64,000 nucleotides of DNA from a virus (IMGVR_UViG_3300048998_000202), one strand, 5' to 3'; counted from the first letter of the stretch, positions 2,030-23,186 are shown. The notes: generated from the sequence alone by a model not told the origin. A program made the numbers and translations.

Positions 2030-3415
2030 TCAGGAAACGGTGACGTTGCCCGACGCGGCGGAGGTGGTCGTGGAGACCGATCCCTGGGCCCCCACGGTGG
2101 CGGTGTCCACATGGCCGGTGGTCAGCGCGGTGAAGTCGTTGCTCAAGACGTTGCCCGCCACGGTGTGGACGGTGGTGTCCTGGCCTCCCAGGGTGACGAT
2201 GTAGTTGATCGGGGCGCCCGAGGACGGTGCGGACCACACGACGTGGATGGTGCCCGCCGACGGGCTGGTGACCGTCGGGGCCGCCGGGGCGGTGGGCTTG
2301 CCGAAGGCCGCCGAGGCACTGGAGGTGGCGTTGGCGACCGCGCCGTTGGAAGTGACCGTGGCCGTGATGGCGGTGGCGCTGGCGACTCCGGTGAAGGTGG
2401 TCGTCAGAGTCCCGGCGGCCACGGTCTTGGTCTGGCCGGACGACAGGGTCACCGTGTAGCTGAGCACGGTGCCGCCGGACGTCGGGGCGACCCAGGTGGC
2501 CACCACGCCGCCCACGGTGGCGTTGCCGGACAGGACGACGCTCGTGGGGGCGCCGGGGCGACCCTGGAGGCCGGAGCCCGACTTGATGGTGCCGTCGGCG
2601 CCGTAGATGGGGTTCTGGGCCCAGTAGGGGTCCAGGCCGCCGGGCTTGCCGACGTCCGGCTCATCCGGGTTGTACGGCGTCACGGAGGCCGAGGCGGTGC
2701 CCAGCGGGCCGTTGCCGTTGCGGTTCCGGGCCAGCACCTGGAAGGTGTACGCCTGGTCGGGGACCAGGTTCTGGACGGTGACGGTGGTGACGCCCCGGCC
2801 GGTGTAGGTGGTGCCGCCGGTCGAGCCGACCACCACGTATCCCAGGACGGGCGCGGTGGCATGCGGGTCGGCCACGGTGGCCCACGTGACGCTCGCCGTA
2901 CGGGCTCCGGCGGCCACGGTGGGGGTACCGGCGGGGGCGACCGGTACGAGGGCGCTGACGGGCCCGATGGCACCGATGTTGCCCGACTCCAGGGTGCCGC
3001 TGAGGTTCTGGGCGTAGTCGGTGCGCACCGATCCGTCGGAGATCGGGGTGTCGGTCCGAGTGGTGTCGGCGCCTCCTGCGGCGCCCACGAGGCCGACGGT
3101 GAGGGTCGGGGCCCGGTACGCCTGGGTGACTCCGGAGGTCTGGGGCCAGCCGATCATGCCGGTCTCGACGGTGCCCGCCAGCAGAGGCGGAGGGGTCGGG
3201 GTGTACGGGCCGTTGGTGGCGTTGGTCGCTGAGGTGTCCGGAGTGCCGGTCAGCGTGCCACCGGTCTGGACGTTGCTGCCGCCGCCGCCAGCGCCGGAGT
3301 TGGCGGTGTCGGTGTTGGACGCGCGGTCTTGGGTTCCACGGGGGGCAGCACCGGCATTTCCGGTCACACCCTCGGTGTCGATCTCCTGACCCGAGTATCC
3401 GGGCGGTGTGGTCAT
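2030..3415 (-). CDS. fibronectin type III repeat virion protein
   Basis: Three Fn3-like modules (e.g. VTWATV..VLGYVV..VQNLVPDQAYTFQVLARNRNGNGP; WVAPTSGGTVLSYTVT; WSAPSSGAPINYIVT). Confidence 0.8.
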   Translation of the reverse strand: MTTPPGYSGQEIDTEGVTGNAGAAPRGTQDRASNTDTANSGAGGGGSNVQTGGTLTGTPDTSATNATNGPYTPTPPPLLAGTVETGMIGWPQTSGVTQAYRAPTLTVGLVGAAGGADTTRTDTPISDGSVRTDYAQNLSGTLESGNIGAIGPVSALVPVAPAGTPTVAAGARTASVTWATVADPHATAPVLGYVVVGSTGGTTYTGRGVTTVTVQNLVPDQAYTFQVLARNRNGNGPLGTASASVTPYNPDEPDVGKPGGLDPYWAQNPIYGADGTIKSGSGLQGRPGAPTSVVLSGNATVGGVVATWVAPTSGGTVLSYTVTLSSGQTKTVAAGTLTTTFTGVASATAITATVTSNGAVANATSSASAAFGKPTAPAAPTVTSPSAGTIHVVWSAPSSGAPINYIVTLGGQDTTVHTVAGNVLSNDFTALTTGHVDTATVGAQGSVSTTTSAASGNVTVS

Positions 3416-3443
3416 GGTGCTGCTCCCTCGGGGACTCGGTGTA

Positions 3444-4064
3444 CTACTGCTTTGCGGCGGTGGAGGACGAGGTGGTCTTCTTCGCTGCGGTCTTCTTGGC
3501 GGGAGTCGCTTCGCGGCGCTCCTGGCCCTTCTGGGCGGCTACGGCCTCGTCCTGCGGGTTGGAGGCCCCGGCGATGACCTGCTGCCCGTAGGACTCGCTC
3601 TGGCCGCTGTCAGGGACCTGGGTGATTCCGGCGTCCACTCCGCTGGCGTCCCCCGCCACGTTGGGACTGCGGGGAGCGTCCGGGGCCGCCCCGGTGTCGT
3701 TCCCCGGCGCGATGATGTTCCCGCCGTGCTCGGGGACGCCGCCGTTTTCGACGGTCTGCTGCGGGAGGTTCTGGGCGACGGCGGTGGCCTCCTCGTGCTT
3801 GAGCAGGCCGCGCACCTCCTCCACGATGTCGGCGGTGCGCTCGCGCACGACGGCCTCCACCTTGGCCACGACCCGTTCCACATCACCGAAGATGCGAGTG
3901 GTGCCGGACACGCGCTCGTTGTGGCCGCCGCCGGTACCGGAGGTCTCCAGGGTGCCGGTCATGGCCGTAGGGTCCGGGATGTGATCGACGGATTCCTGGT
4001 AGCCAGTGGCCGCCGGGGAGTCCTCCGGGATCTCGGAGTTCTGGTTCTCAGGCTGTTCTGTCAT
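3444..4064 (-). CDS. hypothetical acidic/low-complexity late protein with Lys/Ala-rich tail
   Basis: 206-aa ORF with RBS, ending in PAKKTAAKKT. Confidence 0.6.
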   Translation of the reverse strand: MTEQPENQNSEIPEDSPAATGYQESVDHIPDPTAMTGTLETSGTGGGHNERVSGTTRIFGDVERVVAKVEAVVRERTADIVEEVRGLLKHEEATAVAQNLPQQTVENGGVPEHGGNIIAPGNDTGAAPDAPRSPNVAGDASGVDAGITQVPDSGQSESYGQQVIAGASNPQDEAVAAQKGQERREATPAKKTAAKKTTSSSTAAKQ

Positions 4065-15713: not shown

Positions 15714-16112
15714 TTAGAGCATGGCGCGCAGGAGGGTGTTGAGGTCGGCCGGGGACAGGTCCTCCCCGTTGCCCAGGCGCTCGCGCAGCTCACTGACCTT
15801 GCGGTCGGTGTCGCTCATCCCGTAGTAGGGGTCGGGGGTGTGAGCAGTCACGACATCCTGTACGGCGTCCATGTCGGTGTCGCCGAGAATGTACAAGGCC
15901 CGGCCGCTGTCGTCACCGGTCAGTACGACCTGGTAGGCGTTGCGATCGCCGAGGTGGGCGTAGACCTCTTCGATGAGCTGGCGCTGGTGGACGTCTCCGG
16001 TGACCTCCAGGACCTGGGCGTGGCCGTCGAAGGGGATGTGGCCGTCCTGTGGCGGGACGAGCATGCCCTCGACGTCCTCTTCGACGGCGTCTTTGTCGAT
16101 GTTCACGGCCAT
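15714..16112 (-). CDS. hypothetical protein
   Basis: 132-aa acidic ORF overlapping the end of the 1875-aa gene. Confidence 0.6.
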
Positions 16113-19100
16113 GTCGGGTCCTCGTCTTCGTCAAGGGCGGCGTAATGGGTGTCGGCGATGTCGAGCCGGTCCAGGTTGGCGGCCTGCACGCTCGCGCCCT
16201 CGTTGATGATCGCAGCCTGCTCGTGGGGGCTGTAGTTCTTCAGCGCCAGCTTGGAGAGCATCGCACGGGCCTGGAGTGCGATCTCGGCCCCGTCTCCGGT
16301 GCCCCGTACGGGGCTTGAGGAGCCGTCAGAGGACAGGTAGGAGGCGTGGCTCTGGAACTGGGCGATGAGGTCCTCCAGGGACCCCACAGCGGCCGTACGG
16401 GGCGGGGTGAGGGATTCGTCGTCGGTCAGGTCCAGGCCGTCGCCGTCGGTGAAGGGCAGGGCGCCTTCGGGTTCCATGTGAAGGGTGGCCTCGGCGCCAG
16501 GGGTGAGCTCCTGGTGCTCGGGCATACCGGGGTGTCCCGGGGGCATGGCGCCGCCCTCCCCTCCCTTGGGGCCGGAGGGGCGGGGCGGTCCGAATCCCTC
16601 CCCGAGCATGGAGATCGCCTCCGAGGTCATCGGGACGTCCCTCAGGGCCCGCCAGTACGCCGTCACGCCGTTCTCCAGGGGGGTGTCCTCGGTGCCGGGG
16701 CTGGAGGCCAGGGGGTCGTCGGACTGGGCGATCTGCTGGGGGATGGACGCGATCCGGTCGCCCAGTTCGTTGGGGGTGATGGATCCCCAGTTGTCGGGGT
16801 CGGACTGGGAGGCCCAGCCGGTGGAGCCGGGGTTCTCGGCGAGGTTGCGGGGCTTGGTGGGACCCGGGGTGTAGTTCGGTGCGGCCGGAGTGGGCTCTCC
16901 CCAGGGGGAGTTGATCGCGGCCTCGTGGTGGGCGCCGTCAGGGAAGTCGTGCCGCACCCAGTCCCCGTTGCCGCGAGGGCGCCAGGAAACGCCCTTGAGG
17001 TGGACGGGAGCACCGGCTTTCAGAGGGACCTCGGCGTCGTCGTGGTCACCCATGGAGATGACGTCTTGTGCGACCAGTTCTTCGGGGTCGGTCTCGATGT
17101 GCTTCTTGGCCGGGGTGTGGGCGTGCAGCACCACATGGGTGTTGTTGTCACGACTGTCGCTGACGCCTGAGTAGTGGGCGGCCTGGTCCTTGTCCGGCGT
17201 CCAGTGCGTCCCGAGTCCCTGGTCCGAGAGATGCGTCGAGAGGGCCTGGGCTCGCTCCGCGACCGGCCGGGAATCGTCGTGCACCACGCTGTGCACGTCC
17301 GACGGCAAGTGGACCGCCATGCCCCGGTGCAGGGTGTCCCCCAGGCGTGGGTGGATGGAGTCCCAGTCGGTGTAGACGGACTCGTGGGCCCGCTTGGTCT
17401 CGCCGTCGGAGTGCTCACCGTCGTAGCAGTGCTTGTTGTGGCACTGGTAGACGGGATCGCCCCATTCGTCACGGTGGAAGCGAGACCCCTCCTCGTCCTC
17501 CTCATACTCCGGTTCGTGGTGGTCGGGTTCGTCTTGCTCTTGGGCTGCCGTCAGGCCGTGCATGCCCAGCAGGAACGCGAACTCCTCGGGGTCGTGACCC
17601 TGGGCGCGGGACCACTGGGCGAGCGCCACCAGCGGAGTGACCTCGATCTCCCGGGCAGAAGACCGCACCAGCTTGTTGTCGCCGGAATCGATGTCGTAGC
17701 GAAGGACGACCTTCTTCGGCACCCACTCCGGCTTGGCCGAGTCCTCGGTGACGTCCCTGCCGAACATCCCCCGGGACTGGGCCTCGTACTGGAGGGCCAG
17801 AGCGTGGGAGCACATGCGCCCGGCGAACCGCGAGAAGTCGTCGTTGGCGCCCCAGTGGTAAGCGCCCCACTTGCAGCCGCAGGTGTACGTGGCCACCGAG
17901 TGCCGGGAGCCGGGGAAGCGCTGTACCCCGGTCTCGTAGACATGGTGGTCCCCCTGGACCTCGCCGAAGACCACGCCGTCCGAGGCGAGGGTGATGCGGA
18001 CCTTGCCCTCGGAGCGGATGCGCTTGGCCTTGCGCTGGACATCGGCCCACGCCGAGGTGAAGTGGAACCGGAACTCGGGGTCGATTCCGGCTTCGGCGAT
18101 CAGCGCGTACGGATTGAACGCGGCCTTCTTGCGGCCGTTAGTCGGGCGCCCGTCCTCGTCCCACTCGGTGCCGTCGTCATAGGTACCGCCGGAGCCCGTC
18201 ATGGCGTCGGCGTCAGTAGACCCCTGAGAGATGATCTCCTCCTCCGGGGCCTCGTCGGCTATGTCGGCGAACGAGCCGTCCTGCTGGTTGGCCTGCTTAC
18301 GCTGCACCTTCGGGGGCTCGTAGTCCTCGTCCCCCGGGTCCCGGGCCAGGCGGTGCGGTTTGGCCCCGGGGAAGAACAGGTGCTTGTGGTCGATCCAGTC
18401 CCCGACGCGCTTGACGTTGTTCAACAGCGGCTCGCCATCGTGGCCCACCCCCACCATGTGACCCTGGACGAGGTGGCCCGTCTCCGAGGGCCGGTCATTG
18501 CCGTTGAACCTGTTTCTCTCGGCACGAGCAGCCCGACCCTGCATCTCCTCGTGGGTGTCATTGCCGTACTCGTCGTTGAAGGCGTCCATATTGCAGTTGT
18601 CGTCGCAGTACTCGTCGTGCTCGTGCCCACGGGAGTAGTTCGAATCCGGGTCCACGGGGTGTCCATGGTGGTCCAGGTCGTAGACGCTGACGCCGTCTTC
18701 CTTGGCCCCGGTGACATTGTTGGTGGACCGCTCGTCCGCGCGCCAGTCCCCGAAGCGAAGGTAGGTCGGCGAGGGTTCCGCCGCTCCCAGACGACGCTCG
18801 GCGGTGCCGTAGTCGTGCAGGTTCACCGCCCCGATGTGCAGAGCACCGTCGTCGGTGACCTTGTGCACGATGCGGTGACCCCGGGACGCCTTGGTGGCGT
18901 ACCAGCCCTTCAGCGGATGCCGCAGATCATGCGTCTGAAGGTTCGGGGCCCCAGCGGCCAGGGCGTCGATGGTGGCGCCGATCTGCTTCTGGGAGGGCTT
19001 GTCGAGCTTGCCCAGCTCCTTGGCGGCAGCCGGGTGGAAGGTTACAGGCCGAGATTCAGCCGGAGCTGCTCCCACTTCACCGGGGGCTCCTGGCTGTTCT

Positions 19101-21730
19101 CCCGCTCCTGCATCGTCTTGACCAGATCCGGGTCGGGTTCGAGGCTTCCCACGACCCGCAGTCCGTCCTCCGTCATGTACGCCATGGGGCTCGCCTCCGC
19201 TCTGCTCATCAAGTCCACCCTCCAGGGTACTCCAGGAATTGTTGGGGTGCAACGTCTCCACGAAGGCACCCTCGGCCGACATCTGCCCGTAGTGCGACCC
19301 GTCCACCAGGTGGTGGTGGGTGTACTGGCTCGGGTACGACGGCGGGTACTGGGTGTCCGGGTCGGCCGCGCCCTCGGCCCACGAGATGCCGTGGTGCAGG
19401 CCGCCGTTGCCCTCGTGGCCGTGCAGGATCACGTGCGTGGGCGGGTGCGGGTGCGCCCCCTGCTCGTGCAGGGCGTCCGCATCCACGTCCGCGTCGATCT
19501 CCGCGTCGGAGGGGTCCTCGTGGTCGTCGTTGAACAGGTGCGCGTTGCCGACCTTGGAGTACAGGTGCCGCGCCCGATCCACCATCGGCTTGGACTTGTC
19601 GTGGACGAAGGCGTGGTCCTCGGGGCTCAGGTGCACCGCCGCGCCCGTGTGGGTCTCCGGGGCGGGCTTGGGCTCCAGCAGGTGCACGCCCTGCGCCTGG
19701 TGCTCCTCCTGGAGGGCCTGGGCGTCGGAGTGCGAGACGTGCTCGCCCGAGGGCAGGTGGAAGTCCGCCTTCTTGATCGGCGGCCCGTGGTAGCCCTGCT
19801 CGTTCGGGTCGTTGTGGTCGGTCCACACGTGCTCGCCCGGCACGTGTGCGGTCAGCACCGGCCAGTCGTTCTCCGGGTCGTTGTCGTTCGCGGCGTGCTC
19901 GTGGGCGTAGTCGGGGCTGGTGGAGACCCAGTCGCCCTTGTTGATGTCGTGTATCCCGTGCGGGACGGCCCGGTAGATCTGGATGTGCCCGTGGTCCCCG
20001 AAGTGGCTGTGGCCCTCGTCCGGACCGGGCGCCTGGTGCATCATCGAGTACTCACCGGCCGTGACGTGGTGCGCCCAGGGGGCATCCGTCTCCCGGCCCT
20101 CGTGTCCCCACACCGGCTTGGACACCGCCGTCACCCCTGTGATGTGCACCGGAGCGCCCGTACGGACCGTGCGCTCCTGCTCGTGGCCACCGTCGAAGAT
20201 CTCGTGCTGATCAGCGTAGTCCTGCCACTCCGGAGTGCCGTGCTGCACGACGTGCTCGGGATCCACCCGGCCGTGCAGGATCACCCCGTGGGTGTGCGGG
20301 GTGGCGTCGTCCTCGTCCTCCTCGTGGGCCAGGGCGAAGTTGTGCGAGGTGTACGGGTCGGTGGACCAGTGGATGCCCGCCTCGTGCCCCCGGAAGCCCT
20401 TCTGGTTCAGGTAGCCGACCGGATCGGCGTGCAGGCGCTCCACGTCCTCGTCGCTGGCCAGCCCCAGGTTCAGCCCCCGGTGGACCTCCTCGCCGCCGAC
20501 GGAGCCGTGGACCGTACGTCCCTTCTGCACAGTCTTGCCCCGGGTGTAGCTGTCCCACCACGCCTTGCCGTCGTTCGTACGCTCGCCGTGGTCGATCGCG
20601 TGGGGGTGACGACGCTGCATCTCATCCATGAGTGCGGACGCGACCCCCTTGCCCCGGTGCGCCTCGGCAGTGTCGAGACCCTCCACCCGGACCTTCTGGT
20701 TCTTCTTGAACGGCACCAGGTAGGTCAGCGTGCCCATGTGCTCGCCGGTCTCCGGGTGCAGCGCGTGGAGCTTGACCCTGTCGTCGAAGGTGCTGCCGCC
20801 ATAGTCGGCGGTATCGGCAGTGAAGGTCGGCTGCACCTTCTCGGCCGCCGCGTATTTGGCTACACTCGCAGTACCCCGAAGAAAGGCGCTGTCGTGGCCC
20901 GCTCCCCCATGCCCATCCTCGAACGCTTCCTGAGCCACGTCGATGCGTCGCCTGATCCCGAAACCTGCGACATGTGGAACGCCCGGACGAACCGCCTCGG
21001 GTACGGCCAGTTCTGGGACGGCACCTACACCGCCTCCGAACGCCCCCGGATGGTCGATGCCCACCGATGGATCTACCTCCACACCCATGGACCCACGCGC
21101 CTGCATGTACGCCACACGTGCGACATACGCGCCTGCGTCAAGCTCGGGCATCTCATATCCGGCACCCAAGCCGACAACATGCGAGACCGCGACTCCCGAG
21201 GCCGGGGCGTCGTACCCGACATGCGGGGTTTCGCCCGAGGCCACGGCACCAAACTCACCGCTGAGCAGGTGCTGGAGATTCGCACTCGCGCCACCGGCCA
21301 GTGGGGAGAACAGCGCCGCCTCGCCCGGGAGTTCGGAGTGGGTCATCAGACCATCAGCGCGATCCTCTCCGGAAGGCGCTGGGCGGAGTGATCCCATGTG
21401 GACGGGCAGCGCGATGTCGGGCCTGTCGCGCAGTACGTCCGTGAGTTCTTCGTAGTCCTCAGAGGCCAGATGCCCCCCTGCCGCCTGCCGGGTGCCAGTG
21501 GAGTACGGAGAGAGCTGTGAAGGCCCGTACAGGCCCCGTCCAGCCCCACCGTCCAGGATGACGTCATACTCCTCCCCCAAGGCCGGGGAGTAAGTGACCT
21601 CCTCCACCCGCCCGGGGATCCCGTCAACCGTCATCACCCGCTGACCTTGGGAGTACTCGGTGGGGTAGTCCCCCGCCGCCATGCGCGACAGCGCGGTGTC
21701 GTGTGCGCTTTCGCGGCGTCCCAGCCCCAT
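16103..21730 (-). CDS. giant virion cargo/effector polyprotein (GNAT, three ADP-ribosyltransferase-like modules, RelE-like domain, SWIM Zn finger)
   Basis: [19 protein letters not shown]-like HRG..GIHWSTD..EQE, IYRAVP..GDWVSTS..EQGY and LHRG..GTHWT..DAEV. RelE-like [33 protein letters not shown]. Late promoter at 21750-21784. Confidence 0.7.
19042..19209 (-). CDS. overprinted antitoxin-like peptide (55 aa) in an alternative frame of the polyprotein
   Basis: Own TTGCAC/TACCCT promoter with operator (19224-19252) and GGAGG RBS. C-terminus [12 protein letters not shown] ends at the start of the RelE-like domain. Confidence 0.7.
20894..21391 (+). CDS. HNH homing endonuclease nested antisense in the polyprotein gene
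   Basis: [40 protein letters not shown], followed by [29 protein letters not shown] and TACACT -10 upstream. Start may be ATG 20909. Confidence 0.85.
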
Positions 21731-21791
21731 GCGTCCTCCTACCGATCCTCACACCTTCCCGGCACTGGACGTGACTAGGACAGCAGCGCCC

Positions 21792-23186
21792 TCAACCCAC
21801 ACGACCGCCGACGTTGGCGTGACGGACCACGGTATTACTGGCGCTGGCCGCGCTCCACTGCCACGTGATCACCAGATCGTTCGAAATCGTGGTGTTGAAC
21901 GTTGACGTCGCCGTGGGAAAGATGATCTGGTTCGCCCCGATCGAGCCGACAACGGTCAGCGTCTGGTTCTGCCAGAAGGCATTCGTGCACGTGCCCGATC
22001 CCCCGGTCGTCAAGCATACGAAATCGGCCTCCGCGATCACGCCCTTGTTCGCCACGTTGGACGAAGTGACGGTCGGGCCCATCGTCGACAGAAGTGTCCC
22101 GGCGATTCCCCCCAGATACAGCCGCAGCGTGTAGGAGGGAGTACCCGTGACAGAACCCCGCAGCAACGTCCTCATGTGGTAGACGGCGCCTGCCGTCGCG
22201 TCGTTCGCAGGAATCGTCAACGTGGCCACCACCGTCTCCGTGATGGAGTTGCTGATGGTCTGCATCGACGCAGGAGACGGCACAGTGAACTGCCGGATCT
22301 GAGTGGCGAGGACCTTACTGTCCGTATCCAACGTGGCCACCCCGGAAGCGACCGCGAGCTGACTGGTGGGGACGGCATTGATATTCGCAGGAGTGACCGA
22401 AACAACGCCCTGCGACCCGTTGACCGACGTGACCCCAGCATGAACGTGATCACCCCGCGCCGCGCTGTTCGTCGCACCGGCCGCATTGGCCGACCCGATG
22501 GCCACGATGGTGCCGGTAGAGCTGTAGAGCTGCTGGGCGCCGTTGAGCTTGCTGGCGCCGTCCAGCCCCGGCACACCACCCGAAGCGTTCTTCGAGGCGC
22601 TCGCAATATACAGAGTGGTCAGATCCGGAATCTGCGACAGAGGGATCTTGGTACTGCCGTCCAGAGAGGCGACGCCACTGGCCGCCGCCTTCTGGGTCAC
22701 CGCCACGTACATACTGCTCAGGTCCGGAATCTGGGCAGTAGGCACCTTCGTGGAACCGTCCAGAGAGGCGACGCCGCTCGCTGCCGCCTTCTGGGTCGTC
22801 GCGATGTACGTCGCCGATAGATCCGGGATGCGGGCCGTGCCGAAGGTCCCCGAGGAGACCTGGGACGCCGGGAGGGGCGGCACCTGGGCCACGGGGACCA
22901 GCGTGCCGGAGTCCAGGGATGCCACCCCATTGGCCGCCGCCCGGGACGTCTTGGCGACATAAGTGGCATCGGTGAAGATCTGGTCCACCGCGCCGACGGT
23001 GCTCGCGTCCAGTTCGACGTTCCCGATCAGTCCGTTGACGGAGGTGACGCCCTCTACGATCGTCGAAGGCAGCTCCGAGGACGGGATCTTCCCGTCCGAT
23101 CCGAGACTGGCCACACCGCTCGCCGCACCGATCTGGGCGGAAGTAACGAAATCCGATGTGTCGTCCACCGTCAGGTGCTTAGGCAT
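21792..23186 (-). CDS. tail fiber/minor virion protein with internal repeats
   Basis: Repeats of KAAASGVASLDGSTK(V/I)P..QIPDL and GVTSVNG..G.V motifs. Confidence 0.75.
   Translation of the reverse strand: MPKHLTVDDTSDFVTSAQIGAASGVASLGSDGKIPSSELPSTIVEGVTSVNGLIGNVELDASTVGAVDQIFTDATYVAKTSRAAANGVASLDSGTLVPVAQVPPLPASQVSSGTFGTARIPDLSATYIATTQKAAASGVASLDGSTKVPTAQIPDLSSMYVAVTQKAAASGVASLDGSTKIPLSQIPDLTTLYIASASKNASGGVPGLDGASKLNGAQQLYSSTGTIVAIGSANAAGATNSAARGDHVHAGVTSVNGSQGVVSVTPANINAVPTSQLAVASGVATLDTDSKVLATQIRQFTVPSPASMQTISNSITETVVATLTIPANDATAGAVYHMRTLLRGSVTGTPSYTLRLYLGGIAGTLLSTMGPTVTSSNVANKGVIAEADFVCLTTGGSGTCTNAFWQNQTLTVVGSIGANQIIFPTATSTFNTTISNDLVITWQWSAASASNTVVRHANVGGRVG

Follow-up and report, generated by a model that had tools for sequence, protein, structure and literature searches.

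The DNA analysed here, referred to throughout as the window, is a stretch of 64,000 nucleotides from a virus (IMGVR_UViG_3300048998_000202). It carries on the + strand a predicted homing-endonuclease gene of the HNH_3 (I-HmuI-like) type with a probable C-terminal helix-turn-helix (HTH; 20894..21391), and this gene lies within, and antisense to, an 1875-codon open reading frame (ORF) on the minus strand (16103..21730), assigned to a head-module polyvalent (multi-effector) protein by PHROG matches and homology. As a first-pass annotation made from the sequence alone had described, the minus-strand frame is uninterrupted: no stop codon occurs across the HNH gene between 21730 and 16103. The two frames are exactly codon-aligned, with position 3 of the HNH codons coinciding with position 1 of the host codons. 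Comparison with relatives indicates a true insertion into a once-continuous gene, and the mechanism favoured here, at a probability of roughly 0.6, is that ribosomes read through the insert and translate it as a junk linker.

To gather alleles of the host gene, viral contigs (IMG/VR) were scanned with a two-sequence alignment of the conserved N-terminal domain (residues 1-113; 21392..21730, minus strand), which homologue searches and AlphaFold delimit as a small β-barrel plus helix. Contig L015 (= L018) encodes a 1526-aa HNH-less homologue, P0004, with which the window ORF is collinear through to the last residue. Host residues 1-116 match residues 1-118 of the L015 protein at 70% identity, and host residues 294-412 match its residues 122-241 at 56%. 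In the window, an insert of approximately 175-183 residues (~0.53 kb) stands in place of 3-9 linker residues, just past the N-terminal domain. Five further HNH-less alleles were found (L017, L019, L020, L021 and L025), and the HNH-less alleles read ...RPDIALPV[RH]MGSL[QRS]TTA... directly into the cargo domains. The HNH gene occupies the site in the window and in two sister contigs, L022 and L031, and is absent from it in these six. The comparison with HNH-less alleles had been proposed in the first-pass annotation; all six show an insertion at these coordinates, and the inter-domain location that it gave for the linker is also upheld, the N-terminal and cargo domains being contiguous in the HNH-less relatives. 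Its likening of the site to the niche used by guide J holds as an analogy of position only.

The inserted segment corresponds to host residues ~116-293 (20852..21385, minus strand), with boundaries that are uncertain by ~30 nt. Its left end would lie at 20836 if a 9-mer situated there is part of the cassette, or at 20879 if the residues 'LRGTAS' on that side, which resemble the native 'LRTTAS' of L017, belong to the host. At the other junction, the codons TCS CTS of HNH-less alleles correspond in HNH-bearing ones to TCA CTC (Ser-Leu; in antisense, Glu-stop). A candidate target-site duplication, TCACTCCGC versus TTTCTTCGG, was rejected as not convincing, since no more than 5 of their 9 positions agree. 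The insert was found in none of 150 representative homologues (the best 150 of 253 matches to the N-terminal domain), and residues 110-295, used as the query in word-indexed searches of 5.8 billion protein clusters, retrieved no protein other than that of the window itself.

Over the 60 nt that precede the site, the HNH-less alleles share a DNA identity of 0.84-0.86, which falls to 0.48 about 30 nt beyond the site; the conserved 60 nt, as in L015 and L019, end in ...ATGGGCTCSCTC. The cassette therefore lies where a conserved anchor gives way to hypervariable cargo. A position of this kind can provide a conserved recognition sequence. Phage nuclease genes have been reported to tend to occupy boundaries of genetic exchange, and the position of the cassette fits the idea that they mark and promote such boundaries (PMC10448857).

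The product of the + strand gene matches Pfam HNH_3 (PF13392) at 27.2 bits (cut-off, 24.8) and a dozen PHROG HNH/endonuclease families (best E value, 2e-21). Annotated phage HNH endonucleases match it over its full length at 38-40% identity, and in an alignment with relatives the family-invariant columns H57, H74, C76, C81, H86 and N95 are all kept, in keeping with an HNH ββα-metal motif and its His, Asn and Cys ligands. Residues 109-160 match PHROG HTH and repressor families at E values of ~1e-3; the match of the C-terminus to Pfam HTH_3 is weak (16.5 bits, under the cut-off of 23). The G+C content at third codon positions (GC3) is 0.80 in the gene's own frame. These results bear out the earlier call of a full HNH gene on the + strand. 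Of the span given for it (20860-21391), the end stands, but the frame read from 20860 is not the coding one, and the ORF starts either at GTG 20894 (165 aa) or at ATG 20909 (160 aa). The former is the likelier start, because a Shine-Dalgarno-like GAAAGG (20881..20886, + strand) is found 7 nt upstream and because the protein then keeps N-terminal homology to its relatives: in the alignment with the nearest of them, the five codons before ATG 20909 (V-A-R-S-P) are homologous to the N-terminus of the family. At 21389-21391 the gene's stop codon, TGA, lies opposite host codon Ser114 (TCA).

The closest relatives of the HNH protein are P0155 (82% identity) and the proteins of L022 (61%) and L031 (51%), values that indicate an old clade. 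The exact HNH protein is recorded only from a separate 1,157-nt contig; the 1875-aa host ORF was called on a 153-kb contig. A packaging-associated role like that of the HNH protein HK97 gp74 was considered and rejected: sister genomes lack the gene, and its type is HNH_3+HTH.

Base composition reveals which strand is coding over the insert. In the minus-strand frame, G+C contents at codon positions 1, 2 and 3 are.80/.53/.665 at residues 114-274, versus.71/.46/.88 downstream, and a frame plot agrees. Because the host-frame GC3 flips there, the coding signal over the insert belongs to the + strand, that is, to the HNH gene, and the host frame across it is an antisense 'shadow' of that gene. The host ORF stays open because the cassette is codon-aligned and antisense with a length that is a multiple of three, because the reverse complement of any stop is a sense codon (TGA giving Ser TCA), and because the codons whose antisense is a stop (TTA, CTA and TCA) are rare in a GC3-rich gene.

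In such an aligned antisense frame, stops come only from those three HNH codons, which together account for 0.2% of the codons of genes called with confidence in the window. This frequency gives a probability of an open shadow frame, P(open), of 0.72. Scaled for the HNH gene's excess of A-ending codons, P(open) is 0.50 for the window and 0.60 for L022; with the gene's own third positions shuffled among four-fold families, it is 0.13 and 0.12, respectively. In contigs with a G+C content of 61% or more, the aligned antisense frame was open in 4 of 12 free-standing homologues (2 of 8 for full-length matches).

Shadow frames of this kind were also encountered in other settings. On the + strand of the window, positions 17174-21391 form a 1405-codon open frame that is a codon-aligned shadow of the polyvalent gene and ends with, and in phase with, the HNH gene. 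This long frame is an artefact, and one that could mislead gene callers in either direction. In contig L049, positions 2302-3564 were considered as a further nested case and rejected: the antisense open frame of about 471-480 codons is the shadow of a free-standing double-HNH gene. That gene comprises two tandem HNH_3 modules (420 aa) and serves as a negative control for 'nested' calls.

Contigs L022 (IMGVR_UViG_3300036793_000172) and L031 (IMGVR_UViG_3300036791_000797) were found via homology of the HNH protein only, not via the host gene. In both, the HNH gene lies antisense within the same host gene family, adjoining the portal gene. In L031, the HNH cassette (2992-3489) takes the place of the N-terminal β-barrel. 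The host ORF there is at least 1163 codons long from an ATG with AAGGAG, 10 nt past the portal stop, and it runs in frame through the shadow and on into a conserved helix ('ASDSYPEL...RPP'), followed by the cargo; TAA, the stop codon of the HNH gene, is read as Leu TTA in the host frame. In L022, the frame of the N-terminal domain is in phase through the entire shadow and then meets a TGA, which directly precedes an ATG (TGA g ATG) with GAGAAGG 8 nt upstream. The first domain of the downstream L022 protein directly follows the N-terminal domain in many HNH-less homologues; this host gene, too, was once continuous and is now split, with the two parts probably coupled in translation.

The joint chance of the two in-frame cases in L022 and L031 is approximately 0.003, taking P(open) as ~0.3 and a chance of 1/3 for the phase at each junction. 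This value points to selection for continuity of the host ORF. If that continuity is selected, it would follow that ribosomes traverse the insert, and this is the principal argument for read-through. The first-pass annotation had also considered that the minus-strand gene might really be two genes, with a restart after the HNH gene. Such an arrangement occurs in L022; no well-placed restart signal was found in the window.

AlphaFold2 was run on host residues 1-420 with a 22-row alignment. The predicted local distance difference test (pLDDT) score is ~90 for residues 20-80 of the N-terminal domain and again ~90 for residues 300-395, where the first cargo domain past the insert, a GNAT acetyltransferase (PF00583; residues ~300-395; 20546..20833, minus strand; 56% identity to L015), is situated. 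Residues 114-297 score below 50 and are modelled as coil. Such predicted disorder, with a confidently folded domain on either side, fits a floppy linker that the protein tolerates. The host-frame translation of the insert matched no Pfam family at E≤0.1. The shadow frame, the GC3 flip, the lack of a family and the low pLDDT all agree with the earlier description of the minus frame here as a low-information linker.

Sequences upstream of the HNH start codons were compared among the three HNH-bearing alleles. The window has a promoter-like element (20836..20866, + strand) that consists of the 9-mer CCTTCTCGG (20836-20844), a 16-nt spacer and TACACT (20861-20866). The same 9-mer, CCTTCTCGG, is present upstream of the HNH gene of L022, with the same 16-nt spacing and then TAGACT; in L031, GCTAGATT is placed 6 nt before the HNH GTG. 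Thus GCTAGA[CT]T, with its TAGAYT hexamer, lies exactly 6 nt before the HNH start codons of both L022 and L031, which suggests that the HNH mRNA is leaderless in those two. The window gene appears to have lost the leaderless start codon and to use the later GTG or ATG with a Shine-Dalgarno sequence. A consensus sigma-70 scan called no promoter upstream of the HNH gene. The promoter-like element is therefore best treated as a plausible lead, with a spacing conserved in L022. Of the signals named in the first-pass annotation, the ribosome-binding site and the -10 hexamer are both plausible, and the latter (TACACT) is conserved with L022, but it was not called by the scan.

The same short sequence has a second aspect in L022. 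At L022:3843-3892, CCTTCTCGG lies at a -35-like distance from the HNH gene, and its other strand is the Shine-Dalgarno sequence GAGAAGG of the restarted host gene. One short sequence seems, therefore, to serve both genes in that contig.

In the favoured mechanism, a compact, free-standing HNH_3-HTH cassette, comprising the promoter-like element, ribosome site and ORF, would have invaded the host linker in antisense orientation. Ribosomes would start at the strong ATG at 21730, translate the unstructured shadow peptide of ~175-183 residues and go on into the GNAT and remaining cargo domains. The product would be one polypeptide with an extra floppy linker, made without RNA or protein splicing, and the nuclease would be made separately from a + strand transcript. 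The presumed target of the nuclease is the conserved DNA immediately upstream of the site in HNH-less alleles; through cutting there, the cassette, and probably also adjacent variable cargo modules, would be copied into rival phages during co-infection. The first-pass annotation had proposed a splicing-free homing strategy; a splicing-free HNH insertion in a linker is what is found, and the read-through itself we infer. For its further suggestion, that the linker is cleavable and the host protein a processed polyprotein, the analysis turned up no evidence.

Several observations weigh against this mechanism. The openness of the shadow frame is by itself unremarkable and depends on the null used; it is the phase at both junctions, not openness, that needs explaining. 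The low pLDDT of the insert is weak evidence and is partly expected, because no row of the alignment covers that segment. Since L022 shows that the site tolerates splitting, read-through in the window is inferred rather than demonstrated, and stop plus restart appears to be a viable alternative at the same boundary. The N-terminal domain is found both fused and stand-alone in relatives, which on the one hand favours the mechanism, as a sign that the site is tolerant; on the other hand, because stand-alone genes exist, covalent linkage of this domain may not be needed. The only in-frame start between the insert and the GNAT domain, GTG 20836, may act as an internal start, although the Shine-Dalgarno-like GAGAAG there abuts the codon with no spacer. 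Finally, the expression level of the HNH gene is uncertain, because the leaderless start of L022 and L031 has been lost.

It might be supposed, then, that the gene is functionally split in the window as well, yielding an N-terminal-domain product, either with a junk tail or cut short by early termination of translation or transcription, and a separately started cargo protein (from GTG 20836, for example). The open frame would in that case be a side effect of high GC3 and of a length that keeps phase one time in three. L022 presents exactly such a structure, a TGA followed by GAGAAGG and an ATG, and stand-alone N-terminal-domain proteins of 102-205 aa exist; L024 ends with a stop of its own. 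A P(open) of 0.25-0.7 is compatible with this explanation, and GTG 20836, just before the GNAT domain, adjoins the 9-mer CCGAGAAGG, which is the Shine-Dalgarno sequence in L022. However, as the window ORF is free of stop codons, ribosomes that begin at its strong ATG (21730) must read on, and the lack of a spacer before GTG 20836 has been mentioned. The independently found L031 is, moreover, fully in frame, and its conserved helix is translatable only from upstream of or within the shadow. A functional split is the main rival, though on balance considered unlikely.

A recent, damaging insertion is less credible still. Here a dispensable cargo gene would have been inactivated or crippled, its frame remaining open as there has been too little time for decay. 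Polyvalent cargo genes are indeed accessory and highly variable, and the window allele is unique among the 5.8 billion protein clusters. Yet the 1580 downstream codons are intact, with a GC3 of 0.88 and the collinearity with P0004 noted above; the HNH clade appears old, judged from its identities to P0155, L022 and L031; and the host ORFs are still open in 3 of 3 alleles with known context. Recent damage is thus regarded as quite improbable.

Splicing, by a group I or II intron with an antisense ORF or by a non-canonical intein with an antisense nuclease gene, has precedents, in that antisense homing-endonuclease ORFs inside actinophage inteins are documented (bioRxiv 10.1101/2025.01.02.630785) and phage homing endonuclease genes are commonly carried in introns (PMC10448857), but it is barely credible here: Rfam had no match at E≤1 over 20300-22000 at permissive thresholds, the insert RNA in host sense has a folding energy like that of shuffled sequences (z=+0.23), the ~40-60 nt of the insert outside the HNH ORF are too little for a ribozyme core, the Pfam search found no Hint/intein family, the host-frame junctions GSL|RPAPS and SAFL|RGTAS lack the Cys/Ser...His-Asn-Cys/Ser/Thr boundaries of inteins, the entire insert bears the GC3 signature of the opposite strand, and L022 handles the same cassette by stop and restart. 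The earlier remark that no intron or intein signature was noticed is borne out by the Rfam, folding, Pfam and junction results.

Beyond the read-through of this one insert, a more general reading is offered tentatively, as possible but doubtful. Codon-aligned antisense nesting might be a distinct, selected lifestyle of homing endonuclease genes in GC-rich phages. With equal reserve, the nuclease gene might be kept free of TTA, CTA and TCA so that the host translates through, and such cassettes might settle preferentially at the boundary between anchor and swappable cargo, where their cuts would also drive the exchange of cargo modules between phages, a reading to be held no more firmly than the rest.

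To our knowledge, homing endonuclease genes (HEGs) are thought to survive inside useful genes only via introns or inteins or by splitting the gene. If the interpretation presented here is true, there is a third route, in which the HEG is antisense, in phase and simply translated through. This route would be available mainly in GC-rich genomes, where genes usually have an open antisense frame. It would explain some of the very long or odd 'linkers' in actinophage proteins, and it would mean that gene callers systematically miss such nucleases. A limited literature check found no description of a codon-aligned HEG that lies antisense in an open host ORF without an intein.

Among published cases, the nearest is the ShiLan domain, that is, the 'hidden HNH endonuclease' insertions within the DNA methylase genes of mycobacteriophages (Arsenault, Gosselin and Gogarten 2025, PMC11855218). 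There, as here, an HNH gene lies at a conserved site in a phage gene whose ORF remains open, intein and intron features are lacking, the peptide read in frame is predicted to form a disordered loop, and the distribution among relatives is disjunct, suggesting active homing. The ShiLan HNH gene, however, shares the strand of its host gene and occupies frame 3 of the host's transcript, and its translation is the open question in that system; in the window the HNH gene is on the opposite strand, exactly codon-aligned and furnished with its own promoter-like element, and its host gene codes for a cargo protein of the head module, not for a methylase. Neither 'reverse' nor 'opposite' occurs as a word in the ShiLan paper.

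Free-standing HEGs are also known to split genes into 'genes-in-pieces', as with the HEG-split ribonucleotide reductase cited in PMC10448857, and intronless homing is described for the seg and mob genes of T-even phages (PMC2988022). The window resembles these in having a free-standing HEG, with no intron or intein, at an interruption-tolerant position of an essential or useful gene, and L022, with its stop, Shine-Dalgarno sequence and ATG, is a direct analogue of genes-in-pieces. The host gene of the window, in contrast, is not split: with the HEG antisense and in phase, its ORF stays continuous. For actinophages, non-canonical inteins have been described that carry homing-endonuclease ORFs in antisense (Gosselin et al., bioRxiv 10.1101/2025.01.02.630785), and that preprint cites an earlier description (Gorbalenya 1998). 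In these, too, the nuclease gene runs opposite to an open host ORF. They differ in having splicing domains that excise the junk peptide, whereas no splicing domain is detectable in the window, and their nucleases are LAGLIDADG or VSR-like rather than HNH_3.

The host gene begins with AGGAGG (21735-21740) 4 nt upstream of ATG 21730. It is situated among virion genes, with a portal gene upstream (PHROG), and holds several unrelated effector domains: the GNAT domain (Pfam), RelE-like, ParB-C-like and other families (PHROG), and a SWIM-like domain. In this respect it is like the phage polyvalent proteins described by Iyer et al. 2017 (PMC5512222), being a multi-domain effector array among head genes. 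It differs in being without a MuF anchor and having instead the unannotated N-terminal β-barrel module, and HEG invasion of polyvalent genes is not discussed in the passages of that paper drawn on here.

With the N-terminal domain as query, 1.84 billion representative proteins yielded 253 matches (E≤1e-3), of which almost all lie within residues 1 to ~113. The domain, the motif of which includes ASDDYPEL...RPD, heads phage proteins of several domains and 600-2300 aa, which number in the hundreds; a few matches are the stand-alone proteins already described. It matched no Pfam or PHROG family, and Foldseek gave only a weak likeness to small β-barrels of the CAP-Gly and PWWP type (E ~0.01). The domain may be an anchor or packaging module of such polyvalent proteins. 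Against 50,697 phage records, neither blastn with 20000-22500 nor tblastn with the N-terminal domain gave a match. Between the portal and polyvalent genes of the window, an unusual position, lies a minus-strand gene (21792-23186) for a 464-aa protein with repeats of tail-fibre or minor-tail type (PHROG 1446 and 14726); its homologue in L015 is 1076 aa long.

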